A DNA stretch of 61,976 bases, filler included. It is 8 parts of 8 records of this genome, joined end to end, with 100 filler letters (N's around TTAATTAATTAA, not from the genome) between each part and the next. Parts side by side here need not be neighbours in the genome. Positions count along the whole stretch, not along the records: positions 42,908 to 61,976 come from SRR15195285_3092; 7 more parts are not named here. The stretch is one strand, 5' to 3'. The first letter of the stretch is position 1. Each line of letters begins with the position of its first letter. Both the position numbers and the translations under genes were made by a program. This document shows positions 10,674 through 61,976 of the stretch, piece after piece. The notes beneath the pieces were generated by a model that worked only from the letters and a program-made list of their open reading frames with translations, was not told where the DNA came from and did not search any database.

Positions 10674-10773
10674 NNNNNNNNNNNNNNNNNNNNNNNNNNN
10701 NNNNNNNNNNNNNNNNNTTAATTAATTAANNNNNNNNNNNNNNNNNNNNNNNNNNNNNNNNNNNNNNNNNNNN
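10674..10773. other. Artificial contig-joining spacer (N44-TTAATTAATTAA-N44)
   Basis: Fixed 100-nt spacer with stops in all six frames; the same structure occurs seven times in the window. Confidence 0.98.
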
Positions 10774-16370: not shown

Positions 16371-16470
16371 NNNNNNNNNNNNNNNNNNNNNNNNNNNNNN
16401 NNNNNNNNNNNNNNTTAATTAATTAANNNNNNNNNNNNNNNNNNNNNNNNNNNNNNNNNNNNNNNNNNNN
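16371..16470. other. Artificial contig-joining spacer
   Basis: N44-TTAATTAATTAA-N44. Confidence 0.98.
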
Positions 16471-19727: not shown

Positions 19728-19827
19728 NNNNNNNNNNNNNNNNNNNNNNNNNNNNNNNNNNNNNNNNNNNNTTAATTAATTAANNNNNNNNNNNNNNNNN
19801 NNNNNNNNNNNNNNNNNNNNNNNNNNN
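19728..19827. other. Artificial contig-joining spacer
   Basis: N44-TTAATTAATTAA-N44. Confidence 0.98.
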
Positions 19828-26984: not shown

Positions 26985-27084
26985 NNNNNNNNNNNNNNNN
27001 NNNNNNNNNNNNNNNNNNNNNNNNNNNNTTAATTAATTAANNNNNNNNNNNNNNNNNNNNNNNNNNNNNNNNNNNNNNNNNNNN
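26985..27084. other. Artificial contig-joining spacer
   Basis: N44-TTAATTAATTAA-N44. Confidence 0.98.
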
Positions 27085-32371: not shown

Positions 32372-32471
32372 NNNNNNNNNNNNNNNNNNNNNNNNNNNNN
32401 NNNNNNNNNNNNNNNTTAATTAATTAANNNNNNNNNNNNNNNNNNNNNNNNNNNNNNNNNNNNNNNNNNNN
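32372..32471. other. Artificial contig-joining spacer
   Basis: N44-TTAATTAATTAA-N44. Confidence 0.98.
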
Positions 32472-39503: not shown

Positions 39504-39603
39504 NNNNNNNNNNNNNNNNNNNNNNNNNNNNNNNNNNNNNNNNNNNNTTAATTAATTAANNNNNNNNNNNNNNNNNNNNNNNNNNNNNNNNNNNNNNNNN
39601 NNN
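39504..39603. other. Artificial contig-joining spacer
   Basis: N44-TTAATTAATTAA-N44. Confidence 0.98.
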
Positions 39604-42807: not shown

Positions 42808-42907
42808 NNNNNNNNNNNNNNNNNNNNNNNNNNNNNNNNNNNNNNNNNNNNTTAATTAATTAANNNNNNNNNNNNNNNNNNNNNNNNNNNNNNNNNNNNN
42901 NNNNNNN
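42808..42907. other. Artificial contig-joining spacer
   Basis: N44-TTAATTAATTAA-N44. Confidence 0.98.
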
Positions 42908-43054
42908 CGGCGCTTGAATTTGCATGAATGAGAATCGGCCAAAATTGGTTCGGCGTTCGTACGGTACCGCTGGAGCGCTGCTACCGGCGGCGTTGGCTCC
43001 GGAGAGCGCTGCTGCCGCGCTGCTCCGGAGAGCGGATAGACGCCGGCAGCCACG

Positions 43055-44884: not shown

Positions 44885-45001
44885 GTGAAGCGCCCGTGGG
44901 CTCGTATGCACGCCGCAAGTGGGCATAGGTTGCGAAATTTATTGCCTGTTGCTCCAGCTGCTTGTCGCAACCTGTGAGGAGCTGCGTCAGCAGTCCCGGT
45001 G

Positions 45002-48000
45002 TCATATTCCTAGCTTCTTCCCGTGTCGTTCGGCTGGCCCAGCGCTACTGCTGTCTTCGCTCATCGGTCCACTCAATATGGTGCCCCCTTCAATCTTGCT
45101 CCGCGTCTCGCGAAGTCGCTGGATATCTGCCGCCTCGTCGTCATCTAATGTTGCGCTCAAAAATTGATCGTCCTCCTCTATACTAGTCTCCTCGCGCTCT
45201 TCACGATGTTCCGTAACCCTGGCAGACGCGAGCCGAGCTGCATTGCTACGTCGGCAGTCCTCGATGAGCGGCGCGAACACCATAGTCGAAAGCAATATCA
45301 TTGGAGGTATCTGAATGACCAACAAGAAGTGTCCTGCAATATCAAGAAGCTCGGGTACGTGTGGATGCGAGCAGTGCTGCAACCACTTTAGCACACAGCA
45401 CGTGACATAGGCGGCACAGACCGTGGCCGTGCAGACAACCAGTGCAACATTCGCAAGCGGCCCACCATGCGATCCAGGTGGGTTGAGCCTACGCTTGATC
45501 TTCAGCACATGGTGCCAAGCCCGGCGCTTGCGGATGATCGCTTCATCCAACGCGTTCCGCATGTAAGATTCTTTAACAAACGTGTCTAAGTGACCTTGTG
45601 TAAAGTCGCAAACTTCGTCGATATCCTTGCGGTAGCGCTTGAAACACACTGCCAGGAAATTGAGCGTGATCCCGACCCCGTGCTGCACCGGGAATACTTC
45701 TGCTTGGTTCATGAAAGCTCGGTTGATCTCCTCGACAACGTAGAGTTTATCCTGCACTTCTTTAATCGCCCACTTCAATCCGACTTCTTGCCCAGGCGTG
45801 GGGGCGTTGAGTATGTCCTGGTCGCGGTTCCATACGCGCTGCGGTACCCATGCACGCGCCAACCCACCTTTATCCTCCTTGTTACGATCATAATCGTTCC
45901 TGTCGAACTGACGCAGGCCAGCGGCAGGGACAATGTGGGGCCGAAGGATCCTACCAGCGATTCGCCTCTGCTTCCAAGTCAATTCGTCTAGGTAAGCCGT
46001 TGCCTCCTCACTGACCATGTGCACCTTCAGCGCACTCCTCTTCTCGTCAACCACAGCCTGCGCGATCTTAAAGTCTTCGTTCGCGGCGTCGAACAGCCGG
46101 GCTGCGTCTGGTGAGCCGACGCTCCCTGAGTCCAATGGCCGTGTCCATGCAGAAATCGCCAAGAGCGCAGCGCTGATGGCCGCGCCCACGACTGGTTGGA
46201 CCATGCGTCCACGCTCCCACATCAGCAGCCCACCTGCGAGTAGACCCCTTGCAAGCACACTGTATACCTCCGACATGTAGAATGATGGCTTATAGTGCGC
46301 ACAGAATGGCTGAGACCATGGATGCTTCTCCCCGTTTTTCAACAGCTTCCGTGCAGACAAAAGCTTCAGCAAAACCAACGACGGCAGCAGCCCGCACCAA
46401 GCACCCAAGACCCCATAGCCAATCCAGGAGTGAAGAGAGTATGTGGCGTCCAGAGGACCGAGGCCAGAGTCGCCAACTACTCGTGCAGTGGTGCAAGCGA
46501 CGCTCACATCAACGACCAGGTGGCTGGAACCGTCGTCCATATTGCGGCAGTCGTAGAGCTGCAACCATGTGCGAATGATAGAAGGGTGAGCCAAGCTGAC
46601 GATATTGAAAGTCCAGCCCACCACCAACTCAGTGAGATCGTGCGAGCGCATCAACTGTGCTGCGTGCTCCTGCATTAGCCTGCCCTTCCCCCGTTTTTTC
46701 GCAAGGGCTATGTACATGTGTGACAGTAGCTTTGTACGAATCGCCCAAAGCACCCATGCCGGAACAACCAGCACAGCAACAGAGACGCTTCGCGCGTACA
46801 GGACTTGGTAATAACCTAATCCACAGCCAAACTTTGCAATTGATGCGATGTCCAGATTCACCAACGGCGCGAAAAACTCAACCACAACCCAGGCACGCTG
46901 CGGCAGTGGTAAGCCCAGCACAATTGAAAGTGAAGACAGTATCTGATACGTCCACGCCAACAACATTGAAGCCACATATAGCCGTGGCCAGAGCAGTTTG
47001 ATTGGCTGTACCAGCATCACAGCAACCCCGCGCAGTGTAATGGTAGAGCAGAGCCCGTGCACGAGGCGTGTTTGTTTCGGAGCTGCCGAAGTATCATCTG
47101 GCACAATGGCAGCTGGATCGAAGTCGGGTTTGGTACAACATCGTGTCCGCCGCAGATCATGGCCAGTTGCTGCAGCTCCACAGCAACTCGAGAACAACAT
47201 TATAATCGTTCCAGTCGCGCCCACACAAATGTACAACAGCGACCAATCAGTTGCGTCGTGACATCTCACGTTATCGCAAAACCTTCGGCCGGCATCACCG
47301 CCCACGCACTGCGCAAGGCACAGGGGCCCAGAAAAGCCCAACGCACAACGATCTCCGTAAAGATTAGTTGCGAAAAACTGCGACGTCGACTCGTTCAATG
47401 GCCCCGGCTGTACAGCGTGATTTGCATGGACGTGCGCATGGACGGGAGCCCAGGCTGCGCCGTGTTGCAGTCGTGCCAAGCCTGTTGGCTCGGTTTGGTA
47501 GTGTACCGGAGTACAGTCAACACTGTCGCAGCCCGTGAGCACCTCGCCGAGGCACAACTCTGGCACCGGACATCGGTATACATGCCGTGGTCCATGCAAG
47601 GGTTCGTCTGGTAGAAGCATCAACGTACCATTTGAACTCGCTGCCGTCCCTCCAACCGTATGATAACCTTCGCGCACCCTTGGAATTCCACCGTCGCATT
47701 CGACACAGCTCGGACAAGCAACACACTTTTTACCGTCAGCGACGTCCTTCAGGGAAGGCAGATTCGATGGTTCTAACCACGGCTGCTCAGTATATTCACT
47801 ACCATCCCAACAGAATATATGTGATTTATCGTCTCCGTATATGTCTGCGTCGTACGTGCCATCGGGACAGCGGCAGTCGTCCGCTGAAACAGGAGCTGCT
47901 AAAATCATGCCGTCCAAAGTTTGCGTCACAGTCTCCTCCGCACATCTATGGCATTGGTCACCTGCACTGTAATGGTTTACTGTACATAAGATGCAGGCAG

Positions 48001-51000
48001 TGGCGGCAAGCCTGGCATTTGGCTCCCAACCAGATGGGCATGTTTTGCATGCAAGTCCAACGTCACTGTACGTCCCAGCCGGGCATTCCAAACACGCCGT
48101 GCGAGCTGGATTTGGCCCCGTGCCTGCTTGACAAGGTACACACGGCGTTCCGTCAAACGATACATGCCGCGGGCTGACGTTGATGCATGAGTCACAGTGA
48201 GCCATTGTCGTTGTGTTGACCTGCGAGCCTCCGCCGCACAATTCGTCACATTCAACAGGCTGCGGGACAGCGGCAATTTCTGAGTTAAAAGAACAGCGTC
48301 CCGCCTCCAGACAAGCATCCTCAAGAGACTGGTGTGCAGAGGCGATCGTCGACCGGGTATATGCATGCGGTTTGTGCCTGCCGTTGGCATCAGCACAAGA
48401 TTGTTTATCTGCTGCCTCGCATGTCCGCATTCCGTCGCGATTTAAAAAAACGCAAGCGCCGTTTCCGCCCGCAGCAGACTCGCAGGCGTGGCGTGACGCA
48501 ACCCAAAGCCTGCAGGTGCCGGCTGCTTCACACGCCTCGGCAGCCGTTGTAAGATTACCAGAGCCTAAGTCAGTCGCTGAGCACACGTTGCGGTCTGAAG
48601 CCAGGCACTCTGCTTGCTTGTGTGGCACGAATGGTTGATACGTGCAGACACCCTCAGTGTCATCGAAAGGTACCCTTCGAATTTCACATCGAGTATCATC
48701 AGACGGAGAATTTAGCCGTCTGTCTCCCAGATCAATTCCGGCACACGTTGCACTGGCTTGAGCAACGCAGGCTTCAGCATAGGTGCCAGCGATATAGATG
48801 CACGTTGCAACAGTCGAGTCTACGTCGTCACAAAAACCTGGCGTAACACCTAAGTCAGGTGACGTTGTCAAAACACAGTTAATGATATCTTCAAATGTAG
48901 AAGTGTGATCACTGATCATGGTAGACGTGCAGCTATCTGTTGTCGCAGCTGTGTAGACACAACTGAGCGCGCCACCGACAGGTCCTTGTCCGGCAGCATG
49001 GCAGTCGGCTTCCGCCGAAGCTGTTCCCAGTACTACGGCAGCGCAGCTCTGCTGCACGGTTGCCTCGCAAGTTTCGAGTACCTCGTCGACATACGGCAAA
49101 TATTCGCATTGTGTCAGTCTAGTCGACATGCAACTGTCTTCAGCATGAATAGTGTCCAATGCTCCGCTTGCGGAAAAGGTGCCGGGCACATATGTGCATG
49201 TAGTTACACCCGCGTCCATGCTAGCACATGAACCCTGCGTGAGGCCAAAATCAGAACTTGGTGTCAAGACACAGTTGATGGTGTCCAAGGCTGTTGTCGT
49301 CGGCACTGACGTTGACGTACAACTGTCTACAGTGACAACCGTGTCTAGTGCGCCGTCTACATCAGCGTCGACGTATGAGCCGCTAATGTACGAACACGTG
49401 TATTGGCTTGAGTCGATGTCTTGACAAGAGCCGGGAGTAAGTCCGAAGTCTGTAGACGGGGAAAGAACACACCAAGATGTATCCGCGTTTCGTGTCACGG
49501 ACACCGACAATGATGTGCAACTATCCTCGACGTCAACGATATCGAGTACACCACTAGCAGAAAAGCTACCAGCCACGTACGCACAAGTTGCCACATTTGG
49601 ATTAGTCTCCACGCATGATCCTGGGGTCACACCGAAGTCAGTCGTTGGTGTCAAGTAACAATTGATAGTGTCACCCAGTGTAACACTCCCTGCCGCACCG
49701 GCAGCAGCACAAGCTAGACTGGGATCAGTACCACTGAGATCCGTTGCATTACACATCTCTGCGTGGCTTGGAACGCATGCTACCGGCTGCTGTCGATCGT
49801 GCAGGTATGCGACAGGACTCTGCCAGACATCGTCTCCAGTGACATCGACATTTGCACAGGCAGTCGTAGCGCTTGCAGTGCAGGCAACCGTGCGATTGCG
49901 ATAGCGCCCAAGGCTGCTGAAATGTCGTGGGCCGTCGACTGCGCAGCTAACGCAGTGGCGTGCAGCAGAGCCACGGTTCGGGCGTGTCCCAGCCTCGCAA
50001 AGTGTGCAGTTCTCGCCATCCGAGTTATAATATCCCATATCGGATCGGCATGCATCGCACCCACTGGAGTCAGCGTTGACGGTGTGCCCTGGCTCGCACG
50101 TGTAGCAGCGTATGTGATCATCAGTATACTCGTGAGCAGGGCACCTTGTGCAGTAACTATTTTCTTCACTCCATCGACCAGCGGGGCATACCTCGCACGT
50201 CCGGCTGCCGTCAAGGCCACGCCGGTACTCAGTTGTAGCTGGGCAAGGCTCGCACGTATTCGTTCGCAAGTCACGAACAAGACGTCCAGGGCACGCATAT
50301 CGAAGACTATGCAGTCCTTGTAGAGGGTCAAATGTTGACTGATTTGCTGATATGCTGCTCGTTACGTTGCCGCTCAGCAGTGGCGAGTTCGGATCAGCCA
50401 GTTGGGCATCTAGATCGGCGAAGACCGAGCGCGAATCCGTTCTGATGATAAAGAAAAACTCTACCGCTACATCGTCGTCCTGCATCCTGCGCCTGGTCTC
50501 GCCCAGCACGTTCGTAATTTCTACCTGAGAAGCGTTGATGCCCAAGGAATGGACCAGGTCCTGGACAAGGCCTCGCTCGAGAAGCTCACGTGCAGGACCT
50601 ACGAGCTTACGCGATTCAGTCTGCCGCACCGAACCATCGCCAAATTCTAGGGATACGCCTGTGCCGATAAAGTCAATCAAAGTTGAACGGCCATCATCAA
50701 AGGCCACTGTGACACTCGTAGTGTCAGAGCGGTCTACTGCGACAATGGTCACCAAGGTACGAGCGTCGCCGTCGTGATAATAGACAGACGCACCGACTGA
50801 GACATCTACGGCCAGGACTTCGGCACTAGCTCGCATTTCCAAACCAACCTCTGGCGACATTACTGTCTCGTCTTCCTTCACTGGCGGTTCCAGGCAGGTG
50901 GTGTTGCCAGTCAAAACTGAGTAATGCATCGAGAAATGCGGGCCTGAGTACCCAATAGGGCACGGCCCACATTCACGACCAGGGCTGACGTTCTTGCAGA

Positions 51001-54000
51001 CTGTTGATATGTCGCAGCCGCCATTGGTGTCCAGACACTCATTCAGGTCAACGCAAGTGGCATGGTGGTCGTTGGGATTCATCCACACTGGTTCAGATCC
51101 AGCAGAACAGACACACCAGTCCCGATCAGGTATCGACTCTGAGTTCTCCCAACATTCGACACACGAGAAACCAAACTCGCTATAGCGGCCGGCTACGCAC
51201 AGGTCGCATTCGGTCTGCTCAACATTTGGACTGCGTCCGGCTGCGCATGGGGTGCACTCAATCCCATTGCTAGAAACAGTGCCCTCTGGGCACTGGTCGC
51301 ACGCGGCATGATCGGCCGAGTTACGAGTTCCACCTGGGCACGGGGCACACTGTCCAAGAACCCCTGCCCAGCCAGGCTCGCACAGACTACAACCTGACAG
51401 CGAATCTGTTGTGTGTCGTAATGGTTGCACTGGCACAGTGCCGTCAAGACACGGAATGCAGGAGACCCCAGGGAAGCTAGGAATGTGTAGACCAGTAGCA
51501 AAGCATGGTAAACACGCCTCTTTACCAGGTTCGCCATTGTATTTGCCGATCTCGCACGCATCACAAGCGGTTTTCAGGTTGTTCGGGACGCGTCCAGCTG
51601 GACACTCTGTACACACTCCAAACGTACCTGCGGTTCCTTTAGGGCACCGCACGCACGCCGCGTGTTCGGGGTCTGGAGAGGTTCCATGCGGACAAATAAG
51701 ACAGGCACGCCCATCCAAGCTGTATAATGCCTCACCAGGAATGACTAGGTCTGTGATATCCTGAGCCAACCTTGCATCGATGAGTTGCACCGCCGCAGCA
51801 CGGTACAACTCTGCTCCGATGACAGCTCCGGGTAGCTTTTCAATCTCGTTTGCTACCGAATTTAGTGTAGTGATAGCGCCATCAAATGCTGAAGTAGCGT
51901 TTGTAACTTGGCTAACTACTTGCCACTCACTTTGCGCGTTTGAGTAGACAACGTCGTCAAGTGTGCTGCAGGCCAAGCAAGATGTCGCATCAGCGGATGG
52001 CTGATGCCCAGGTGGACAAGGACCGCAGGAAACTCCAACGCCGGAGTATTGACCAGATTCGCACGCCAAACACGCTGTGTGATCGGCATTTGGTTGCGTA
52101 CCCGCAACGCACGACTGACACGGTGTGCCGTCAGGACTGAATAAGTTGTCGATTGCAGGTGAAATTGTTCCAAGGTATGCACATGCAAGGCATTCACTCC
52201 TGCCCGGATTCGGCTGCTTGCCCGGGACGCACTCTGTGCAGGGAGACCCATCGGAAGAGTATAGACTCGTCCCTTGCAGAGCGCACGGTGCGCATCCGGA
52301 ATTGTCACTGACTTCATCGCCAGCGCACGGAGATACAATTGGGATACACACTTGCTGGGGAGCCGTCTCAAGATCCTTGCACGTCTTCGTACCAGGCACA
52401 TACGAGCATGCGGCCTCGTGCAGGTGATCTGGTTGAGATCCCGGCTCACATATAGCACAGCTGATCCCATCGGGCCCGTACGAGCGGTCGCTCTGCCCAG
52501 AACAGTGCAGGCACCGGATTGCACCGAAGGGGAATTCAGGGAACTGGCCGAGGCTGCAGCTTAAACACGCAACTCCATCGGGTGAGTACTGTGCAACGCA
52601 CTGTTCACACCTATCCAGGTTTGAACTGGGCTGTGTGCCAGGGGGACAGGCTAGGCACCGGCGACCAACGCCGTCGCCACTGCTGACTCCATCGACAATC
52701 CGTCCATCCCCACTAACTTTTCCAGGGCCACAGCTTTCGCAGGTAGTCTGCTCGGCATTTGGTTGCATACCCATCGGGCAGCTGGAGCACAGCTCGCCAT
52801 CACCGCCTGCATACCATCCCGGATTGCAGCGAACACACCCTGTAGCCCCAACCCCGCCAGTGAAGACCACGCCGTCTACATTCATGTTCCACGGGGGCAT
52901 GGGTTGCTGATGGTGAGATTCAGGCATGCAGCTCATCTGATTTGGTTCGTGAGCTGCACTGCAAAGCTTGCACTCTGTACCATCATCGCTGAACCTGCCT
53001 AGGGGGCACAGCACGCATTCGGCGTGATTGCTATCTCTGACCTGCAACAGCACGTCGTTCACCGGAGTCTGCGCGCCTGGAGCCCGGCCTGGAGGGCATC
53101 GAACGCAAACCCCACGGATCCCAACGAAACCATCTGCATCAACTAAGGTGGACGTGCAACTATCCGGAACAAGTTCCGTGTCAGGGATGACAGACAAATA
53201 CACGCCCGGCACATAGTCGCATGTTGCGATCGAGCTGTCCACGTCTGAGCATGATCCAGGTGTTGTTGCATCAAAATCAGAGTCGCCAGATTCCAGGTCA
53301 CAGTTGTATCCCCACGTTGGGTCCGGTCGTGAGCGCTCGACTGTAGTCGAAGTGCAACTGTCTTCCGTGATCTCAATGTCTGCAACGCCGTCACTTGAGC
53401 AGTAGGTACCAGGCACGTACGTGCACGTAGCTACACTCGAATCAACATCACTACATGAGCCTGGTGTTACACCAAAGTCTTCTGTTGGGGTAAGGGCACA
53501 GTTTGAGGCATCACCGAATGCTGCAGTGCCGTCAGCCACCAGCGTGGAAGTGCAGCTGTCTGCCAATAGCACTGTATCGTGAACTCCACTACTTGAACAG
53601 TAGGCACCAGCAACGTAGGCGCACGTTTTGACAGCAGAGTTCACGTCGGTGCACGAGCCCGGAGTGACGCCGAAGTCGGCAGTTGGGTTCAGGTTGCAAG
53701 CAACAGTGTCTACAGACACGACCGTTGGGACCGGAGTCCACCAGCACCTGTCTCGGATTTCGACGGTATCCGGGTGGTTCGAGACGAATGTTCCAGGGAC
53801 ATAGCTGCAAGTTGCAGTCAGACTGTTGCTGATACAGGTGCCAGCAGTAACGCCAAAATCGGGGGTACGAACCAACGAGCAAAGCAAATCATCACGAAGT
53901 GTGGTGAAGAGTCCTGCAGGGTGACTACTCGCCAAATTTGTCCACTCGCCACAGTCCAGACACTCAGTGTGGCCTGAATTTGCGAAGAGTCCAGGTTCGC

Positions 54001-57000
54001 ATTGGATGCAGACACCGTCCACTCCGATTTCGCCTGTTTCGCATGATATGCAAGGGTCTGGCAGCGTGCGATCATCGTTGAGTCGGAAACCTGGACCGCA
54101 TAAATTGCACGTATCCGTTGCCTCCACATAATATGTGTCCTGTGGGCATGGAAGGCACGCTACCTGTTCATCGTTGGGTTGCAAGTATCGTCTCACAAGC
54201 GGATCGGCATCGCAGTACGTGCAGGGCGTGCCATCGGGTGAAATCGTGTTCGCCGGGCACCTCTCGCACGTGCTCTGTACAGAATTTGGCGCATAACCAG
54301 CCTGACAAGCCACACACTCGCCACCGAGGGCAGACACGTGCGCAGCGCTGACCTCCGAGCACGCTCGGCATCCTGTACGGTCGGCTAACGGCTCTTCGCC
54401 AGCGTCACAAGTCACGCAGACCTCGCCTAATGGACTATGCATATCGCCTGCCGGCCGAGCACTGTCGCTGTTTCGAGTAATCCTTCCACAGAATTCACAG
54501 CCTTCCCTACCAAGGTTTGGCTCTGATCCGGCTGGGCACGCAGTGCATTCCATTCCCTTTGGACTGACGAGCCCAGGACCGCGCTCAGCACACGCAGTGC
54601 AGCCAACATTATCGATTCCATTCCAGTGGTTGGGCTCGTGCCCAGCTGGGCACTCTAGGCACGTCACTCCGTCCGGACCGTACAGCGAGTCTCCGAGATC
54701 TTTGCATCCAATGCACACAGTACCAAGAAATGGAGTGTCAGGTCGCGAGCCAAGGGCGCATGATACACATTCACGGCCGTCAGCAGACACTTGATCTAGA
54801 CACTGCATGCATCCATTGCGCTCAGGAGTAGGCTGCTCGCCAGGTGCGCAGACCTTGCATTCCCGACCGTCCGGAGAGTACTTACCGAAGCCGCACTCCA
54901 CGCAGCTAGACCGACCCAAATTGGGCTCAGTCCCGGGGCGGCACAGGATGCAGTCTGCGCCCGTCGGCCCGTAGGTTTGAATTGGGCATGAGGCGCATGC
55001 TGACCTATCATCCAGGGGCCGCTGACCAGGTCCACACGCAAAGCAGGCTCCCGCGCGACCAGCGTGCCCTGCCGGACATGGGACACACGATGTCTTCCGC
55101 TCGTTCGGTTCCCATCCATCCGGGCACACGGCGCACTCGCCATCGATACCTGCCGACCCAGCTGAGCACTCGACACACAGCCCGCCGGAGGATTCGGTCC
55201 CTGACAAGCAGCCTTTGCACCCAGTCAAAGCTAGGTTCGGTGTGCTCCCGCTAGGGCACTCTGTGCAGACACCATTAAGTCCAGCCGTGCCTGGAAAACA
55301 CGGTTGGCACTCAGTGCTATGCGAATTGGGAGCTTGGCCGTCGCCACAGACGGTACATGTACCCCCTGTGCCAGCAAAAGCTGGTGGGCAGGGCAAGCAC
55401 GCAGACTGATCTTCGTTTGGGCGAGTGCCTGGGCCACACACCTTACACAACAACCCAGTGCTTGCATGCGTCGAAGGGCACGGCATGCACTCATCCAGCT
55501 GATGGCTAGGTTCAGTGCCAGTGGCGCATGGTTCGCAGATGCCGCTGGCGCCGGCGAATCCAGGTGCGCAGGGAACGCACGTCGTTCGCGCTGAACTTGA
55601 AGTTTTCCCACTCTCACACAACGTGCATATGCCGTTGAGCCCAGCACGGTCGGGGCTACATGCTTGGCACGCCGTGCGATCCGATGTCGGCTGCTTGCCA
55701 TCCATGCAGCGGTAGCATTCCTCATTCAGACCGAAATGTCCATCTGGGCATGCTTCACAGCCGAGTAGGTCATCGGTGGGATGGTAGCCGTCAGCACAGA
55801 CACATCCGGACCGAAAATCATTCAAGTGACTGTATAGGCCGCAGGATGCATCACCGATGGTGACCTCCCGAGATTCTACCAACTCGCCCCATGAATAACT
55901 GAGCACTGGTGTCTCCCCGACGATAGCTTTGGCAGCATTCGACGCATCGGTAGTTGCTATTTCTGCGATGAGAAACATGACTGCGTTCCCTGCTTGCCAC
56001 CCTGGTCTGTCCACTACCTCTTTGAGCAGGGCTGACAAGTCAGGGGTCCTGACTGTCAGCCATGGATAGACATCTGAGCAGGGAGGGGGCTCTAGGATAG
56101 GCACGCAACCGCAGCCTTCAAGCTGCATACCAACTGCTGAGCACGGGTCCATGGCACGTGAGCGCAGGCTCCAGATGACACTTTCTGTACCTACGCTTCG
56201 TCCAGAGAGCTCACCTGTAGTTCCAAGCGGTTTGGCAGAATGATCGGCGGCTTCAGCGTGAATCCTCAGGTCCACACCCTCAATGCTATCGAAAACTGTA
56301 TCAGTCATCTTGAAAGTCATGTAGACGTCATGCACTAACGCACCCGGCAAAGCTGTGATGCCTGGCGTTCGAATGCCCAGTAGTTGTCGCTTTTTCCCAG
56401 GCACCGTGCATCGATAGTTTGCGCGAGGAACTACAACTGGTATATACATCTTCTGAACTCCAAATGCTTGGTTGCCTCCCAGACATACTCTGCCAGCCAT
56501 CCGCTCTGCTGCGAAGATGTTCCACACGTCGCCGAATATCTCATCGTCTACAAGAGATCGAGCGGTGATGCCGTCTACCTGTTGGAATCCATCTGTGAGC
56601 CATGGCGGCGGAACAGAAGCTCGCGCATCGTACAGCACGTAGACCGTAGCGTCACGGTCGATGTCGAAACACAGCCAGTCTGCAACATTTGCATCCACAC
56701 CTACATCCGAAAATATGGTGCGCACAAGCTGTCCGCCAGGCAAGAAGTCCGGTAGGTCCGTAAAACTCCAATCCGCGCCACCACCATCGTAAAACAACCC
56801 GACAGCAAGGACTGACGTTCCATATGTCAGCGGGTGCCCTACATTTGTACATGCCTCAGCTTGTCCATTGCCAAATGGTGTGTACACACAGGCACCGGCG
56901 CTTGTGCAGGTTCGGGCCGAACCATCCAATGTGACAAGGGAGCACACATCAGCAACGGCAACATTTGATATTCTGGGCGCATCCCCAACGATTTGTGGCA

Positions 57001-60000
57001 CAATATAATTTGGAAAGTCGAGATCGATTGAATGTAGGTTGACGTGGTTGGTTCCCTCCCCACAGTCATCCAGTATCTCTTCTGCAGCATTCCCGAGAGC
57101 TAATGGGATGTGGTACGTTCCGCCTGTCCCTTTAGAGTCCACGCGCATTGAGAACACGCCGGCCTTCTTGAGATCGGCTCGTATGAGATATTGTTGGCTG
57201 CTTGCGTCATAATACGATGACGCAGAGTACGGTTCTAATGATTGCCCCACCTCTGTCAGCCGGAGCACAAACTCCAAACCAGCTATGGTGATCGGATTCG
57301 GTGTCCCCCCACGCCCGTGCATATCTACTGGGAACACTTGCACTACAAGTTGTTGGCCTGCGATAGCGCTGGGCACATGAGCACAAGCCCCAGCTGCAGT
57401 GCACGTGCTGGCGACTCCGTCCAAAATGACTCCGTTGCATACACCGTCGTCTGCTGCTTTGCAGGATTCTGGCATGTCGGTAGACGAATCTGCCGAGACG
57501 TACACGCACGGTGTTCCCGTGGATGTTAGTACCTCAGTACACGTTGTCGGGTTGCCGTCCAGTGCAACGTCGCAATCAGAGGCATCAGCTGCGACGCAAG
57601 CCTCAGAAAATATTCCGGTTGCAGTGATGATCTCTGCGGTGGTCGCGTCGGCGTCCAACGCTCCGGTCTCGACCGTCATGGTGACATCAAGGATGCCGAT
57701 ACTTTGCGCTGTGTCAAGCACCTTACGACCAGAATTGGAGCAAACTTCATCCTCAATCAAGCATGCCACTACATCATTCGCTGCCTCGCATGACTCAACG
57801 ACAGGAGTCACGGGAGCGGTGAAATCGCATTTCCCTGCCGCATCGCAGGTTGCAGCTGACTGCAATGAGGCAGCTGCACACGCCAGAAGATCTGTCGCTG
57901 TACAAGCCTCAGCAATGGGTTCGGTCTGAGGAACATAGGCGCAGGCTCCGACCGAAACGCATGAATATGCCGACCCGTCGAGTGTCACGTCGCTGCAAGT
58001 TTCATGGTCTGCTGCCTTGCAAGATTCAGGGTCGGCCCCTGCAGGTGTATGTACACATGCGGTCCCTGACGTCGTGGTCGCCCCTGTGCAGGTGCTAGGA
58101 TTGCCATCCACAACTACATCGCAGTCATCAGCATCGATTGCTACGCAAGCTTCGGCTACCGCGATTACCGCTTCAGTGTATGTACATAGACCAGCGTTTG
58201 TGCATGTTTCTGAAGTTCCATCTAGAGTAACCGAGGAGCACGTATCAGTGTCTACAGCAGCGCACGAATCGTCGACGCCATTGTCGACATCAGCTGCTGT
58301 ATACGCGCATGAGCTAGGCACGGGACCACGATAAACACATTCTCCAGCAGATGTGCACGTCGATGAAGTCGATTGTGCAACGTCGACGGCGCTACAGATG
58401 GTTTCGTCCAAAGCAACACAGTTTTCAGCTATCGAATCAAGTGGATCCGCAGCAGTGTACATACATGCGTTGCCGGAGGGCCCGACGTCTCCACACGTGC
58501 ATGAAGCCTCCGTGCCGTCCAAAACTTTTGCCCGACATACGTCCACGTCTAGCGCAGTGCATGAACTTCCGTCGTACGAGCAGTAACCTGCGGACCGGCA
58601 TTTGTCTTCTGGAGTGCGGAAGTCAACCGCGCCACACGTAGCCACATCGTCTGCATGTGTATCGTCGATAGCGAGACAAGCTTCTGTTACCAGGTCAACG
58701 GTTCCCGCGTCACTACATTTTTGTTCGATACTTCGCATGTCAGCTGTCGCGCAAGACTCTAGGTCTGCAGCTTTGCAGTCCTCAGCGACTGGAGTCACTG
58801 GTGCTGTCCATGCACATGCGCCTGCACCGGTGCAGGTTGCCTCCGTTTGGTCCAGCACCACATTTTCGCAATTGTCTGTGGCCATGGCGTAGCACAATGG
58901 CGCTACTGGCGTTACTGGGACCGTGTAAGAACAATCACCAGAATTGAGACACAAAAACTCCGGCGTACTCATTGCAGCAGTTTCACAAATGGCACTCTCT
59001 GAAGCAACACACGATTCTCGAATTTCATCGCCCGAATCCGGAACGCTGTCAGGATCAGAAGCCGGACTGTGTGTACAGACACCGACTGCCACGCAGCGAG
59101 CGGCGCCAGCATCAGTGCCGTCCAGGTCCACAGCTGCGCATATTGTGGCCGCACTTGCCGGCACGTAGGTGCATGCTTTAACATCGATGTCCCCGGTGTA
59201 CGTAGTCTCCAGAGCCTCGCATGCCGCGGAAGATTCTAGATCTGAACCAGTGATACTGGCACACAAAACTGCATCTCTTGGGTCGGACACTACGGCAGTC
59301 TCCGTACATGTCGCTACCGACAAACGGGCCGTGCACGTGAAACTGGCAGAATCGAACGCGCAGTTTCTGACCTCATCCCCCGTATCTGCGACGCCATCTG
59401 GATCGTCTGTAATCACAGCCAAGCAGGTTGCTTCGGCAGTGTGAAGGTCCGCGCTGGTGCACAGGGTTTCGTCCGTCGCAGAGCACCTTTGATCTTCCTC
59501 TGCAAGATATGTGCATGCCCCAGCTTCACTGCACACCGACGCTCCGCCGTCTGCTATTTCTGATGCTGAAACGGCCAGGCAAGCAGCCTCGTCAGCAGCA
59601 GCGCAAGCCTCAGGTACTTCGGCACTAGCAGCAGCATACGTGCATGCCCTGACGTCATCGGCATCGTCAGTACTTGTGGTTCGCAAGGACTCGCACGCCG
59701 TTGCAGTATCAAGGTCTACTCCCGCAACACCGGCACAAAGTGCCGCGTCATCGGCTACAGAATTTGCTGCCGTTTCGGTACACGTAGCTGGAACCGCACC
59801 GCTGGCCACAAACGGTGTATAAATGCAAGCTACTCCAGATGGAGTACCCACGCCGTTGCATGTTGATGCTTCGCCATCCAAAACAACTGCATCGCACACG
59901 CTAGCATCAGTGGGAATGCAGGGGTCTGATGCAGCAGCGACGAACGTGCACGCCCCTAATCCTACGCAGGCGTCCGAGGCGGGCAGCACATCAGCAGATG

Positions 60001-61976
60001 TACATGCAACTGGGTCTTGGGCTGCATCGCAGGACTCTGCCACATTCGCATCTGCAGCAGTGTACACACACGGAGTACCAGAGGGCGTGACTGTGACTGT
60101 GCAGGTAGTTTCACTACCATCGAGTACCACAGCTTCGCAGATCCCAGTATCGCTAGCCAAGCATTCGCCATTGTTAAGAATGCAATCACCAGCGGCAGCA
60201 CATTTCGCTGCAGGGCTTCTCAAGTCTGCCGCGCCACAAGTCTCCAAGTCAGTAGCGATACAAGACTCCAACACTTCGACAACCTCTTCACGTACTCCAC
60301 AAGAACCTGCTTCAGAGCAACGCACCGCTGCGCTCTCCAAATCGACCACTGAGCAGGATAAAGCATCCGTGGCAACACAAGATTCTGCCACTGGCGCAGT
60401 GTAGGTGCACTGTCCGAGCACAGACAGCCCATCCTGAACGCACACTTCCTCTGTAGAACGCAAATCAGCTGCTGCGCATGCTTCTTCATCTACTGCCGCA
60501 CATCTCTGGTCGACCTCACGTAGGTATGTACAAGCACCAGCGTCTGTGCACGTCGACGTGCCCCCGTACAGAATATCTGTTGTGGTAATTGCTAGGCATT
60601 CGTTCTCGTCTGCAGCAGTGCACGCCTCTGCGATCTCATCGCCGTTCGCTGGAACGCCATCAGGGTCACTTGCAGGAGTGTACTGGCAGGGGTTGCCCGA
60701 CGGAGTCTGTGCAGAGACGCAGGGAGAAAATGTACCGTCCAATTCTACAGCGTTGCAGATGTCTGCGTCGGTCGCAATGCATGGGTCTGATGTGGCGGGA
60801 ACCAATTCACACGCCCCTGCCGCAGCACACGTTTGAGCCGGGGGCAAAATTGTAACCGCAGCACATACTGCTTCGTCAGCTGCAGCGCAATATTCTGCTG
60901 TCTCGTCGCCAGTATCTGGGATGCCGTCAGGATCCGTTGCGGCTGTGTACGCACACTTGGTACCTGATGATGTGGTTATACCTGTACAAGCCCACATCGT
61001 TCCATCCAACTCTGCACAGGCACACTCGGTGTCCTGGGAAACGCATTTTGCTGGTCCCACTGTACACCCAGCAGGACAAGCAGTTGCACCGTCTGCTCCC
61101 ATTATATCGACCCGCAGTATGCCACATTCATTCTGAACAGAAAATCCACTGCCATCGTAATCACTGCACGTTGGAATATATGCAGCCGCAAAGGAACAGT
61201 CTCCGGTGCTTACTTCGCAGGCGTCTCCAGCTAAATTCACCGTGCAGGCATTCCCGTCTGCGTCTTTGCCATTGCCGCATGTCGCAGGAACTTCGGTCGC
61301 GGTCCCACTGCAACTGGCTGAAAACTCACAGTTGCCCGCTGATGTGCACTTCGTTTCAGCATCGCGTAGATCTGTGGCGCCACACGACTCCGTCTGTATC
61401 GCGGCACATGAGTGAGCAGTCCCAGCGTCTTCATCTGCAGCGACGTATGTGCACTTGTCAGGGACAGTGGTAGCACACCGTTCTGCAGGGGTCGTAAGCG
61501 GCACTGCACCGCACTGCTCCTGAGCAGCTGCGTCACAAGACTCTGCAATTCCGTCGGCCGGATTAGGGGCAGTGTAGACACACGCATGCCCAGACGGAGC
61601 CACTGTGTTCGTGCAAGCTGTTGCGTCACCGGAGAGGTATACGTTTGAACACGTACTCTGATCTGTGCTGAGACATGCCCAAGTCACCTCTTTGGTGTAG
61701 GTACAGGCAGCTGACTCAACAAATGTACATGAACCTGGGCTCAAAACTCCAGCGTCTTCACAGGTCTCTGCATCAGTGTTAGCACTGGCACACGAAGCCA
61801 CTTCTGTGGTTGTACACGTGTCAATTGCGGGCACTGCTGCCTGCTCAGCCCCTGCAGGAATGTAAGTGCACGCAGTGACGTCGTCGCCATCGCGGGTATC
61901 TGTGGTTAGCAATGCCTCGCAAACTGTAGCGTCGTCTAGGTCTGCGCCCGTGACTTCTTCGCAGAGCTGCTCATCA
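45002..61976 (-). CDS. Giant (>5650 aa) Cys-rich repeat cell-surface multipass membrane protein, 5' truncated by the window edge
   Basis: One ORF open to base 61976 (DEQLCEEVTGADL...). It contains dozens of ~35-40-aa 4-Cys repeats, CxxC (GCC2/GCC3, ephrin-receptor-like) repeats, EGF-Ca CVDLNECLDTNGGC, a SEA-like module with RRRMQ, and several hydrophobic helices at 47250-45270. Confidence 0.9.
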   Translation of the reverse strand, partial: DEQLCEEVTGADLDDATVCEALLTTDTRDGDDVTACTYIPAGAEQAAVPAIDTCTTTEVASCASANTDAETCEDAGVLSPGSCTFVESAACTYTKEVTWACLSTDQSTCSNVYLSGDATACTNTVAPSGHACVYTAPNPADGIAESCDAAAQEQCGAVPLTTPAERCATTVPDKCTYVAADEDAGTAHSCAAIQTESCGATDLRDAETKCTSAGNCEFSASCSGTATEVPATCGNGKDADGNACTVNLAGDACEVSTGDCSFAAAYIPTCSDYDGSGFSVQNECGILRVDIMGADGATACPAGCTVGPAKCVSQDTECACAELDGTMWACTGITTSSGTKCAYTAATDPDGIPDTGDETAEYCAAADEAVCAAVTILPPAQTCAAAGACELVPATSDPCIATDADICNAVELDGTFSPCVSAQTPSGNPCQYTPASDPDGVPANGDEIAEACTAADENECLAITTTDILYGGTSTCTDAGACTYLREVDQRCAAVDEEACAAADLRSTEEVCVQDGLSVLGQCTYTAPVAESCVATDALSCSVVDLESAAVRCSEAGSCGVREEVVEVLESCIATDLETCGAADLRSPAAKCAAAGDCILNNGECLASDTGICEAVVLDGSETTCTVTVTPSGTPCVYTAADANVAESCDAAQDPVACTSADVLPASDACVGLGACTFVAAASDPCIPTDASVCDAVVLDGEASTCNGVGTPSGVACIYTPFVASGAVPATCTETAANSVADDAALCAGVAGVDLDTATACESLRTTSTDDADDVRACTYAAASAEVPEACAAADEAACLAVSASEIADGGASVCSEAGACTYLAEEDQRCSATDETLCTSADLHTAEATCLAVITDDPDGVADTGDEVRNCAFDSASFTCTARLSVATCTETAVVSDPRDAVLCASITGSDLESSAACEALETTYTGDIDVKACTYVPASAATICAAVDLDGTDAGAARCVAVGVCTHSPASDPDSVPDSGDEIRESCVASESAICETAAMSTPEFLCLNSGDCSYTVPVTPVAPLCYAMATDNCENVVLDQTEATCTGAGACAWTAPVTPVAEDCKAADLESCATADMRSIEQKCSDAGTVDLVTEACLAIDDTHADDVATCGAVDFRTPEDKCRSAGYCSYDGSSCTALDVDVCRAKVLDGTEASCTCGDVGPSGNACMYTAADPLDSIAENCVALDETICSAVDVAQSTSSTCTSAGECVYRGPVPSSCAYTAADVDNGVDDSCAAVDTDTCSSVTLDGTSETCTNAGLCTYTEAVIAVAEACVAIDADDCDVVVDGNPSTCTGATTTSGTACVHTPAGADPESCKAADHETCSDVTLDGSAYSCVSVGACAYVPQTEPIAEACTATDLLACAAASLQSAATCDAAGKCDFTAPVTPVVESCEAANDVVACLIEDEVCSNSGRKVLDTAQSIGILDVTMTVETGALDADATTAEIITATGIFSEACVAADASDCDVALDGNPTTCTEVLTSTGTPCVYVSADSSTDMPESCKAADDGVCNGVILDGVASTCTAAGACAHVPSAIAGQQLVVQVFPVDMHGRGGTPNPITIAGLEFVLRLTEVGQSLEPYSASSYYDASSQQYLIRADLKKAGVFSMRVDSKGTGGTYHIPLALGNAAEEILDDCGEGTNHVNLHSIDLDFPNYIVPQIVGDAPRISNVAVADVCSLVTLDGSARTCTSAGACVYTPFGNGQAEACTNVGHPLTYGTSVLAVGLFYDGGGADWSFTDLPDFLPGGQLVRTIFSDVGVDANVADWLCFDIDRDATVYVLYDARASVPPPWLTDGFQQVDGITARSLVDDEIFGDVWNIFAAERMAGRVCLGGNQAFGVQKMYIPVVVPRANYRCTVPGKKRQLLGIRTPGITALPGALVHDVYMTFKMTDTVFDSIEGVDLRIHAEAADHSAKPLGTTGELSGRSVGTESVIWSLRSRAMDPCSAVGMQLEGCGCVPILEPPPCSDVYPWLTVRTPDLSALLKEVVDRPGWQAGNAVMFLIAEIATTDASNAAKAIVGETPVLSYSWGELVESREVTIGDASCGLYSHLNDFRSGCVCADGYHPTDDLLGCEACPDGHFGLNEECYRCMDGKQPTSDRTACQACSPDRAGLNGICTLCESGKTSSSARTTCVPCAPGFAGASGICEPCATGTEPSHQLDECMPCPSTHASTGLLCKVCGPGTRPNEDQSACLPCPPAFAGTGGTCTVCGDGQAPNSHSTECQPCFPGTAGLNGVCTECPSGSTPNLALTGCKGCLSGTESSGGLCVECSAGSAGIDGECAVCPDGWEPNERKTSCVPCPAGHAGRAGACFACGPGQRPLDDRSACASCPIQTYGPTGADCILCRPGTEPNLGRSSCVECGFGKYSPDGRECKVCAPGEQPTPERNGCMQCLDQVSADGRECVSCALGSRPDTPFLGTVCIGCKDLGDSLYGPDGVTCLECPAGHEPNHWNGIDNVGCTACAERGPGLVSPKGMECTACPAGSEPNLGREGCEFCGRITRNSDSARPAGDMHSPLGEVCVTCDAGEEPLADRTGCRACSEVSAAHVSALGGECVACQAGYAPNSVQSTCERCPANTISPDGTPCTYCDADPLVRRYLQPNDEQVACLPCPQDTYYVEATDTCNLCGPGFRLNDDRTLPDPCISCETGEIGVDGVCIQCEPGLFANSGHTECLDCGEWTNLASSHPAGLFTTLRDDLLCSLVRTPDFGVTAGTCISNSLTATCSYVPGTFVSNHPDTVEIRDRCWWTPVPTVVSVDTVACNLNPTADFGVTPGSCTDVNSAVKTCAYVAGAYCSSSGVHDTVLLADSCTSTLVADGTAAFGDASNCALTPTEDFGVTPGSCSDVDSSVATCTYVPGTYCSSDGVADIEITEDSCTSTTVERSRPDPTWGYNCDLESGDSDFDATTPGSCSDVDSSIATCDYVPGVYLSVIPDTELVPDSCTSTLVDADGFVGIRGVCVRCPPGRAPGAQTPVNDVLLQVRDSNHAECVLCPLGRFSDDGTECKLCSAAHEPNQMSCMPESHHQQPMPPWNMNVDGVVFTGGVGATGCVRCNPGWYAGGDGELCSSCPMGMQPNAEQTTCESCGPGKVSGDGRIVDGVSSGDGVGRRCLACPPGTQPSSNLDRCEQCVAQYSPDGVACLSCSLGQFPEFPFGAIRCLHCSGQSDRSYGPDGISCAICEPGSQPDHLHEAACSYVPGTKTCKDLETAPQQVCIPIVSPCAGDEVSDNSGCAPCALQGTSLYSSDGSPCTECVPGKQPNPGRSECLACAYLGTISPAIDNLFSPDGTPCQSCVAGTQPNADHTACLACESGQYSGVGVSCGPCPPGHQPSADATSCLACSTLDDVVYSNAQSEWQVVSQVTNATSAFDGAITTLNSVANEIEKLPGAVIGAELYRAAAVQLIDARLAQDITDLVIPGEALYSLDGRACLICPHGTSPDPEHAACVRCPKGTAGTFGVCTECPAGRVPNNLKTACDACEIGKYNGEPGKEACLPCFATGLHIPSFPGVSCIPCLDGTVPVQPLRHTTDSLSGCSLCEPGWAGVLGQCAPCPGGTRNSADHAACDQCPEGTVSSNGIECTPCAAGRSPNVEQTECDLCVAGRYSEFGFSCVECWENSESIPDRDWCVCSAGSEPVWMNPNDHHATCVDLNECLDTNGGCDISTVCKNVSPGRECGPCPIGYSGPHFSMHYSVLTGNTTCLEPPVKEDETVMSPEVGLEMRASAEVLAVDVSVGASVYYHDGDARTLVTIVAVDRSDTTSVTVAFDDGRSTLIDFIGTGVSLEFGDGSVRQTESRKLVGPARELLERGLVQDLVHSLGINASQVEITNVLGETRRRMQDDDVAVEFFFIIRTDSRSVFADLDAQLADPNSPLLSGNVTSSISANQSTFDPLQGLHSLRYACPGRLVRDLRTNTCEPCPATTEYRRGLDGSRTCEVCPAGRWSEENSYCTRCPAHEYTDDHIRCYTCEPGHTVNADSSGCDACRSDMGYYNSDGENCTLCEAGTRPNRGSAARHCVSCAVDGPRHFSSLGRYRNRTVACTASATTACANVDVTGDDVWQSPVAYLHDRQQPVACVPSHAEMCNATDLSGTDPSLACAAAGAAGSVTLGDTINCYLTPTTDFGVTPGSCVETNPNVATCAYVAGSFSASGVLDIVDVEDSCTSLSVSVTRNADTSWCVLSPSTDFGLTPGSCQDIDSSQYTCSYISGSYVDADVDGALDTVVTVDSCTSTSVPTTTALDTINCVLTPSSDFGLTQGSCASMDAGVTTCTYVPGTFSASGALDTIHAEDSCMSTRLTQCEYLPYVDEVLETCEATVQQSCAAVVLGTASAEADCHAAGQGPVGGALSCVYTAATTDSCTSTMISDHTSTFEDIINCVLTTSPDLGVTPGFCDDVDSTVATCIYIAGTYAEACVAQASATCAGIDLGDRRLNSPSDDTRCEIRRVPFDDTEGVCTYQPFVPHKQAECLASDRNVCSATDLGSGNLTTAAEACEAAGTCRLWVASRHACESAAGGNGACVFLNRDGMRTCEAADKQSCADANGRHKPHAYTRSTIASAHQSLEDACLEAGRCSFNSEIAAVPQPVECDELCGGGSQVNTTTMAHCDSCINVSPRHVSFDGTPCVPCQAGTGPNPARTACLECPAGTYSDVGLACKTCPSGWEPNARLAATACILCTVNHYSAGDQCHRCAEETVTQTLDGMILAAPVSADDCRCPDGTYDADIYGDDKSHIFCWDGSEYTEQPWLEPSNLPSLKDVADGKKCVACPSCVECDGGIPRVREGYHTVGGTAASSNGTLMLLPDEPLHGPRHVYRCPVPELCLGEVLTGCDSVDCTPVHYQTEPTGLARLQHGAAWAPVHAHVHANHAVQPGPLNESTSQFFATNLYGDRCALGFSGPLCLAQCVGGDAGRRFCDNVRCHDATDWSLLYICVGATGTIIMLFSSCCGAAATGHDLRRTRCCTKPDFDPAAIVPDDTSAAPKQTRLVHGLCSTITLRGVAVMLVQPIKLLWPRLYVASMLLAWTYQILSSLSIVLGLPLPQRAWVVVEFFAPLVNLDIASIAKFGCGLGYYQVLYARSVSVAVLVVPAWVLWAIRTKLLSHMYIALAKKRGKGRLMQEHAAQLMRSHDLTELVVGWTFNIVSLAHPSIIRTWLQLYDCRNMDDGSSHLVVDVSVACTTARVVGDSGLGPLDATYSLHSWIGYGVLGAWCGLLPSLVLLKLLSARKLLKNGEKHPWSQPFCAHYKPSFYMSEVYSVLARGLLAGGLLMWERGRMVQPVVGAAISAALLAISAWTRPLDSGSVGSPDAARLFDAANEDFKIAQAVVDEKRSALKVHMVSEEATAYLDELTWKQRRIAGRILRPHIVPAAGLRQFDRNDYDRNKEDKGGLARAWVPQRVWNRDQDILNAPTPGQEVGLKWAIKEVQDKLYVVEEINRAFMNQAEVFPVQHGVGITLNFLAVCFKRYRKDIDEVCDFTQGHLDTFVKESYMRNALDEAIIRKRRAWHHVLKIKRRLNPPGSHGGPLANVALVVCTATVCAAYVTCCVLKWLQHCSHPHVPELLDIAGHFLLVIQIPPMILLSTMVFAPLIEDCRRSNAARLASARVTEHREEREETSIEEDDQFLSATLDDDEAADIQRLRETRSKIEGGTILSGPMSEDSSSAGPAERHGKKLGI

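Follow-up and report, generated by a model that had tools for sequence, protein, structure and literature searches.

The PF06011 proteins are the least understood of the 'TRP-like' channels. According to PMC8618638, the TRP-like channels of fungi, with A. nidulans TrpR as an example alongside S. pombe Pkd2, Trp1322 and Trp663, are defined by means of PF06011; fission-yeast Pkd2 is assigned to this family there, and its members are regarded as Ca2+ channels of the TRP-like type in these organisms. Reconstituted Pkd2 is reported in PMC9727806 to pass calcium upon membrane stretch. A 2022 preprint (bioRxiv 10.1101/2022.08.11.503631) gives Pkd2 nine helices by AlphaFold, unlike the six of canonical TRP channels, and describes it, like the other PF06011 proteins, as lacking an experimental structure at that date; no structure of a PF06011 protein turned up in our searches of the Protein Data Bank (PDB). 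Here we describe a gene of an uncultured marine protist, contained in a stretch of DNA of 61,976 nt (hereafter, the window), the product of which joins a very large cysteine-rich ectodomain to a C-terminal membrane domain; comparison of the sequences strongly supports homology of the latter to protist proteins that match PF06011. We consider it possible, with a probability of roughly 0.4, that the protein is a single-chain receptor-channel, the ectodomain of which would bind particles or surfaces and in which force, ligand or stretch would open a Ca2+-permeable path.

The gene occupies positions 45002..61975 on the minus strand, on which all features of the protein given below also lie, and this segment makes up the 3′-terminal 17 kb of a gene free of introns. 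The open reading frame (ORF) runs for 5657 codons to a stop at 45002-45004, 16,974 nt with the stop codon, and its 5′ end is cut at the end of the contig and of the window. The runner-up among stop-free frames anywhere in the window measures 1677 aa, and at 55% GC, with about 3.9% stop codons expected at random, a frame this long would arise by chance with a probability near 1e-96. An earlier note on this DNA, made from the letters alone, had proposed a product of >5650 aa from one uninterrupted >16.9-kb ORF, and the 5657 stop-free codons bear this out. A chimera, a collapse of repeats or a non-coding frame open by chance would be suggested by the fragmented source assembly, by the make-up of the window, which is a concatenation of contigs, and by the highly repetitive protein, but we regard such an artefact as scarcely credible. 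Besides the negligible chance of the frame, the DNA repeats within it (a single tandem repeat of 24 nt and a single family of 42 nt at 64-76% identity) are old and diverged, so that collapse of near-identical repeats is no issue, and three homologues, described below, are collinear with the protein from end to end. Independent assemblies from other studies also concur. The stretch is present in 19 of 23 listed public seawater/marine runs (14 studies; 6 of the 19 recorded as RNA), at least half of its sampled words being present in ten runs. Two DNA runs from separate studies (X1 and X2) and two metatranscriptomes (X9 and X15) supplied contigs, all of them short-read rather than long-read assemblies, that were aligned to the contig carrying the giant gene. 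All pieces were at least 95% alike to it, with zero joints and zero indels in the ORF, the sole indel falling at position 43024, outside the ORF. The longest DNA contigs on the stretch measured 5887 and 4063 nt, and the metatranscriptome contigs covered all 30 bins in X9 and 22 of the 30 in X15, again without joints. One 3323-nt contig of X2 reaches 1980 nt past window base 61976, which indicates that the gene goes on upstream of the window. Furthermore, of the 33 in-ORF variants between environmental strains found among the 40 listed of 122, codon position 3 accounts for 21, and synonymous changes outnumber non-synonymous ones by 19 to 14; this third-position bias and synonymous excess are the pattern of purifying selection and strongly support a coding frame under such selection.

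The link to PF06011 was obtained through intermediates. A phmmer search with the C-terminal 808 aa against 1.84 billion representative proteins returned 26 hits at E ≤ 0.001, eight of them at E ≤ 1e-10. Seventeen of the 26 were taken into a Pfam scan and five contained PF06011, scoring above the cut-off (gathering score, 28.5 bits) in P0023 (36.9 bits) and P0029 (37.7 bits) and below it in P0013, P0015 and P0018 (18.7-25.2 bits); the phmmer E values of these five to the window protein range from 3.6e-9 to 5.1e-4. Profile-profile alignment by hhalign of the close family (A4, nine sequences) with the five (A5) reached 100% and E 5.1e-47 over 484 columns, which extend from the cysteine-rich juxtamembrane module through the seventh transmembrane helix (TM7). 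Several of the scanned hits also contain Ephrin_rec_like and, below threshold, DUF7630, and the Atlas search with the membrane region pointed to TRP and Ephrin_rec_like clusters with scores of at most 0.93, to be taken as a lead only. Two distant relatives carry additional domains fused to the same membrane domain, namely an EF-hand pair in a loop of P0023 (residues 122-185) and a C-terminal C2 domain in P0015 (residues 524-633), fusions that may weakly hint at Ca2+.

Hydropathy confines the hydrophobic helices to residues 4913-5568, and, taken together with AlphaFold2 (AF2) predictions, counts of lysine plus arginine (K+R), invariant columns and homology, delimits a membrane domain at residues 4913-5570 (45266..47239). 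Nine helices are predicted, at residues 4913-4931, 4978-5020, 5055-5078, 5118-5141, 5177-5207, 5235-5252, 5259-5278, 5505-5535 and 5540-5570, and we infer that the N-terminus is outside and the C-terminus inside; the loops contain 6, 8, 5, 37 and 13 K+R on the proposed cytosolic side versus 2, 2, 2 and 0 outside. With an alignment of 24 sequences, AF2 assigned a predicted local distance difference test (pLDDT) score of about 90 to residues 4979-5349 and of 88-97 to the last two helices, the core alone (residues 4975-5290) having a mean of 81. The domain has 27 invariant columns among nine family sequences. The most conserved motifs of the family are CRNMDDGSSHLVVDVSVAC (residues 5143-5161) and HYKPSFYMSEV (residues 5227-5237); C5143 and C5161 close a predicted extracellular β-hairpin and, with L5153 and D5156, are invariant in 21 sequences, while the 'YKP' motif at residues 5228-5230 is predicted to be cytosolic. 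Between the predicted TM7 and TM8 lies a cytosolic, helical (coiled-coil-like) insert of 226 residues (5279-5504; 45464..46141), with long helices at model residues 440-499 and 611-648; its structural matches are coiled coils only, and it is absent from the fragment P0010. The protein ends in a cytosolic acidic tail of 87 residues (5571-5657; 45005..45265), with 21 D/E versus 13 K/R and low pLDDT. The multipass region marked by the two conserved strings and the acidic tail had both been recognized in the earlier note, which had named the lack of a coherent transmembrane bundle as a reason to abandon its reading; such a bundle, of nine helices, is predicted here.

Three full-length homologues, P0002 (7536 aa), P0003 (7703 aa) and P0004 (7304 aa), all unnamed and from ENA/Logan assemblies, emerged when residues 4850-5657 were used to query 5.8 billion clusters in a word-indexed search limited to proteins 3111-9900 aa long; over the C-terminal 808 aa, their identity to the query is 35-42%. 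By BLASTP, their alignment with the window protein is collinear from one end to the other: residues 91-2689 correspond to P0002 residues 2521-5172 (40% identity), residues 2946-4093 to 5175-6351 (60% identity), and residues 4408-5657 to 6294-7536 (46% identity). Each of the three has an N-terminal hydrophobic segment, a signal or anchor, at approximately residues 50-130, and the Pfam annotations precomputed for them comprise F5/8 type C (discoidin), fn3 and EGF domains, among others, none of which was found by Pfam in the window ORF, apart from a sub-threshold EGF-like match. From this alignment, about 2500 N-terminal residues, or some 7.5 kb of the gene, appear to be absent from the window; the missing part probably carries a signal sequence along with the discoidin, fn3 and EGF domains, and the full protein probably comprises about 8000 residues. 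A protein scan of metagenome contigs with residues 1-400 gave no relative among 193 pattern matches, an exact 41-nt scan for a 5′ continuation gave 0 matches, and a tblastn search of the window with P0002 placed 0 of 30 high-scoring segment pairs outside the ORF, revealing no part of the N-terminus on the other contigs. A profile search added a few further unnamed marine fragments and, as far as these searches reach, the close family is small and confined to marine metagenomes. The earlier suggestion of a receptor-like surface protein from an uncharacterised protist family is in agreement with this, the close relatives being only unnamed marine-metagenome proteins. Among 60 pattern matches obtained by scanning IMG/VR viral contigs with the A4 profile there was no relative, so that a giant-virus origin is unsupported.

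The translation contains 429 cysteines (7.6%); most of residues 1-5000 have 10-26 in every 200 aa, with a cysteine-poor exception at residues 1601-2000 (about 6 per 200 aa). Several classes of repeats could be counted, in line with the huge cysteine-rich ectodomain of several repeat classes noted previously. The N-terminal part of the available protein (residues 1-1540; 57356..61975) is an array of class A units, each of about 30-40 aa with four cysteines and the pattern C-x2-3-[DE]-x2-4-C-...-C-...-G-x-C-x-[YF]. A strict regular expression for this unit, which has no Pfam match, found 21 copies in the window protein, 20 of them within residues 1-1540, and 19, 6 and 5 in P0002, P0003 and P0004, respectively. 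It is followed by a low-cysteine, probably β-rich region at residues 1541-2060 (55796..57355), without a match in Pfam, NCBIfam or Atlas and with 0 hits among PDB sequences; no part of the protein matched NCBIfam at E ≤ 1. Within this region, BLASTP matched an unnamed domain of about 115 aa (residues 1861-2004; 55964-56395) to segments recurring two to three times in the bacterial-type multidomain proteins P0039-P0043 (E 1e-8 to 1e-15), where they fall outside the Pfam-annotated PKD, Big_9, cadherin-like and metallophosphatase domains; it appears to be a widespread undescribed β-domain.

Most of the remaining ectodomain consists of TNFR/ephrin-receptor-like CxxCxxG arrays interrupted by class D repeats. 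The repeat model PF23091 (TNFR_ELAPOR1_6th; related to PF07699) passed its gathering score in the protein, with 63.3 bits (cut-off 33.2) over four stretches in residues 2001-4000, and it gave 28.4 bits in residues 4001-5657; at least 55 CxxCxxG motifs are present. The first array, delimited by this model and by motif positions, spans residues 2061-2689 (53909..55795), and the second, which is the part 60% identical to P0002 and includes a cysteine-free stretch at about 3340-3420, spans residues 2946-3640 (51056..53140); further repeats occur at about 3895-4030 and 4600-4680. Class D copies, units of about 65 aa with four cysteines and the motif 'DFGVTPGSC', are arranged in two arrays of four, at residues 2690-2945 (53141..53908) and 4094-4407 (48755..49696), recognized by the motif and by gaps in the alignment. 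The eight copies are 29-58% identical to each other. Relative to the three homologues, each array is an insertion, with 0 copies of the motif found in any of them; across the first array, the alignment skips from window residue 2689 to 2946 while P0002 advances from 5172 to 5175 only. The last part of the ectodomain (residues 4408-4905; 47261..48754) holds class-A-like units, three further TNFR-like repeats and the juxtamembrane cysteine-rich module, which aligns to that of distant relatives, where DUF7630 scores below threshold.

Between the two class D arrays lie two modules of a different kind. An EGF-like module starting with DLNEC occupies residues 3641-3680 (50936..51055); for the EGF-Ca domain announced in the earlier note, EGF_CA scores below threshold here (17.9 bits against a cut-off of 27, E 0.0037, residues 3643-3677), as does EGF_3 (16.5 bits). 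A small β-rich segment and a conserved RRRMQ module follow at residues 3700-3890 (50306..50878), the conserved string being '...NASQVEITNV-LGETRRRMQDDD-VAVEFFFII-...VFADLDAQLADPNS', with RRRMQ in a loop (residues 3828-3832; 50480-50494). The motif RR[RL][ML]Q is conserved in P0002, P0003 and P0004, the latter two having two copies, and in the distant 934-aa protein P0029, and hhalign of the four orthologues (profile A6) with P0029 aligned the module alone (95%, E 2.8e-8). The pattern strand-basic loop-strand-helix would fit a SEA-like sandwich, the likeness that the earlier note had given to this module. It is at such a site that SEA domains autocleave and Notch is cut by furin, and, judging from the sequence pattern, the basic loop would occupy the corresponding place of the SEA/Notch heterodimerisation domain. 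Unlike in these systems, however, there is no Pfam SEA match (none at E ≤ 5), and the conserved Q after the basic residues is unexplained by a furin-type site. Searches of PDB sequences gave nothing meaningful, either with residues 3690-3900 (best E 0.078, protocadherin-15) or with profile A6 (best E 0.038, a dynein chain). In P0029, residues 72-260 form a complete Nup98-type S59 autopeptidase domain (57.8 bits) ending in HFS, the catalytic motif, directly followed by the RRMQ module, ephrin-receptor-like repeats and a PF06011-type membrane domain; P0029 is perhaps an autoproteolytic ectodomain protein analogous to GAIN or SEA, although its N-terminus has no signal peptide and the gene model may be cut. 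The segment preceding RRRMQ in the window protein was also considered as a degenerate S59 autopeptidase, a possibility that we provisionally rejected, the hhalign match with P0029 spanning the module and not the S59 body; PF04096 (S59) had no Pfam match in the window protein at E ≤ 5.

Given this architecture, the receptor-channel to which we give a probability of about 0.4 would work as follows. The ectodomain would bind or tether to particles, prey or surfaces, and load or ligand acting on it, or stretch of the membrane, would open a cation (Ca2+) path through the nine-helix domain, by analogy with the effect of stretch on Pkd2. The 226-residue insert and the acidic tail might couple the membrane domain to cytosolic partners, and the multibasic RRRMQ loop is, more speculatively, a possible processing site. 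A bolder version, which we hold to be rather unlikely, makes the chain of about 8000 residues a one-polypeptide mechanosensor, in which tether and Pkd2/Flc-type Ca2+-permeable domain are one molecule, the pull of a particle or surface opens the gate, and cleavage at RR[RL][ML]Q yields a non-covalent two-part receptor as in SEA and Notch; it would parallel the animal PKD1-PKD2 complex or tip-link/channel complexes. Several points weigh against a receptor-channel. The N-terminus is missing from the window, so that the signal peptide and full architecture are taken from the homologues, and the topology of nine helices is predicted from hydropathy, the secondary structure given by AF2 and the bias in charge. 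Residues 4850-5657 have no direct PF06011 match in hmmscan even at E ≤ 5, and the matches in the relatives span only profile positions ~207-411 of 426. No solved structure resembles the membrane core: the best Foldseek E values are 0.064 and 0.36, and the highest Z obtained for the core with VIA, 7.9 against a designed nanopore, is at background level, so that nothing shows a pore. PDB sequences searched with membrane profile A1 gave a best E of 2.5. The channel nature of the PF06011 proteins themselves is only partly established and, as PMC8618638 relates, their Flc relatives have been proposed as flavin adenine dinucleotide transporters. Finally, the giant gene is found in RNA libraries, the contigs of which may include DNA. 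A three-copy complex prediction of the core scored 0.00 with no alignment and no controls, and weighs neither way.

Much of the same evidence would suit an adhesive, structural or particle-capture surface protein, such as a coat, a glycocalyx component or a fibre of a feeding apparatus, in which the nine-helix domain is a non-conducting anchor or trafficking module. Disulfide-rich modules such as characterize adhesins and matrix proteins make up more than 85% of the protein, to which the homologues add the discoidin, fn3 and EGF domains of their precomputed Pfam lists, the eight class D units have been gained rapidly relative to the homologues in a manner resembling ectodomain diversification, and no pore or known channel fold was found. 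However, one helix would suffice for anchoring, whereas the membrane domain with its loops is among the best-conserved parts of the protein, is recognizably homologous to far smaller proteins across protists, and carries an EF-hand pair or a C2 domain in two relatives; a purely adhesive role is, in our judgement, a serious but doubtful contender, and for the prey-capture or coat protein offered by the earlier note the evidence points neither way. That the domain is an Flc-type transporter of flavin, lipid or another small molecule, targeted or regulated by the ectodomain, we consider improbable: nine helices without a match resembling voltage-gated ion channels suit a carrier equally well, but it is hard to see what a carrier would do with an ectodomain of about 8000 aa, the EF-hand and C2 fusions point to Ca2+, and calcium-channel activity is reported for these proteins in PMC9727806 and PMC8618638. 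The adhesion-GPCR-like or polycystin-like sensor of the earlier note fares differently in its two halves. No GPS/GAIN match was found by Pfam at E ≤ 0.01 in the whole ORF or at E ≤ 5 in residues 4850-5657, and no G protein-coupled receptor (GPCR) fold or Pfam domain was detectable, which disfavours the adhesion GPCR. The likeness to polycystins holds only in the narrow sense that the domain is a distant relative of PF06011, the family of fission-yeast 'Pkd2', and not in the sense of the animal proteins, the fold and Pfam family of PKD1/PKD2 not being detected: PKD_channel, REJ, PLAT and GPS have no Pfam match in the window protein, and the comparison of the transmembrane region by Foldseek, which the note had proposed as a check, returned no TRP or PKD chain at E ≤ 0.001, nor did the VIA top 50, an absence at the fold level that by itself is indecisive. 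An adhesion GPCR or a homologue of animal-type PKD1/PKD2 is thus very improbable.

The genomic surroundings of the gene are limited to its own contig. The window comprises eight contigs, joined by seven N44-TTAATTAATTAA-N44 spacers (14 runs of 44 N, paired around TTAATTAATTAA, a six-frame stop design) at 10674-10773, 16371-16470, 19728-19827, 26985-27084, 32372-32471, 39504-39603 and 42808-42907; the joints being artificial, gene neighbourhood across a spacer is meaningless. On the contig of the giant gene (42908..61976), the sole true neighbour is a PRMT3-like arginine methyltransferase gene, a single frame of 517 codons on the plus strand (43055..44608; PRMT_C 59 bits, PrmA 42 bits, and a zinc finger of the PRMT3 type, weak at 25 bits). 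It converges on the giant gene, 393 nt separating the two stop codons, and stands outside the giant-protein system. The contrast drawn previously between an intron-free giant gene and intron-containing neighbours is therefore baseless, because the other genes sit on separate contigs and the one true neighbour is itself a single frame. In the bin 42908-43543, the summed contig depth was 25.7, 93 and 28 (X1, X2 and X9, respectively) versus about 0-9 over the rest, perhaps reflecting a repeated or widely conserved element, and one RNA contig has a 6-nt GCCGCG insertion after 43024. Elsewhere in the window, long stop-free frames were found at 1519-5220, 6153-10478, 10726-15759 (minus strand) and 19776-24368 (plus strand), with 1233, 1441, 1677 and 1530 codons, respectively.

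Collectively, these observations show that marine protists have fused a PF06011-type membrane domain to ectodomains among the largest known, in a gene that is widespread in seawater runs. If the domain conducts Ca2+, the protein would be a natural system for studying how an extracellular tether gates a channel and a possible handle on how tiny uncultured heterotrophs sense or seize particles. In addition, the diverged sequences of the family led to a confident AF2 model of a PF06011-type core, which may aid structural work on the fungal proteins. The fungal members (S. pombe Pkd2, Trp1322 and Trp663, S. cerevisiae Flc1-3, and A. nidulans TrpR) share with the window protein a membrane domain that is homologous by transitive and profile-profile comparison, about nine predicted helices, an N-terminal domain outside the cell and, in the cytosol, a C-terminal part with a coiled coil; by analogy, a Ca2+-permeable, stretch-responsive module is plausible. 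They are, however, much smaller, Pkd2 being described in its preprint (bioRxiv 10.1101/2022.08.11.503631) as a 23-aa signal peptide followed by domains of 147, 405 and 135 aa. Their ectodomain is a small ML-like/Ig-like lipid-binding domain, whereas that of the window protein is cysteine-rich and exceeds 4900 residues, with the cysteine-rich juxtamembrane module at the place before the membrane domain where no ML-like/TRP_N domain was matched by Pfam. Also unlike in the fungal proteins, the membrane domain is split between TM7 and TM8 by the 226-residue helical insert.

Closer in layout are protist and algal proteins combining Ephrin_rec_like (PF07699), DUF7630 and PF06011 (for example P0014, P0016, P0022, P0029 and Atlas clusters), in which cysteine-rich CxxC repeats are followed by a juxtamembrane cysteine module and then by the membrane domain; P0022 has in addition a discoidin domain, and P0029 the RRMQ module. 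Ephrin-receptor-like repeats joined to a PF06011-type domain are already present in automatic annotations, and our literature search found no paper on PF07699 and PF06011 together and none on DUF7630. These proteins measure 590-2640 aa and are 20-28% identical; a length 3-10 times greater sets the window protein and its three full-length homologues apart, as do the class A array and the cytosolic insert, and the class D arrays occur in the window protein alone. What is new, accordingly, is the probable scale of about 8000 aa, the repeats of classes A and D, the insert that splits the membrane domain and the conserved RR[RL][ML]Q module. The animal polycystin-1/polycystin-2 pair and the adhesion GPCRs are alike in outline only, with a huge modular adhesive ectodomain, a juxtamembrane module that may be cleaved and a multipass signalling domain, but they have no Pfam domain of the membrane part in common with the window protein and no fold match above background. 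Moreover, whereas PKD1 and PKD2 form a complex, the window protein would hold the sensor and the putative channel in one polypeptide.

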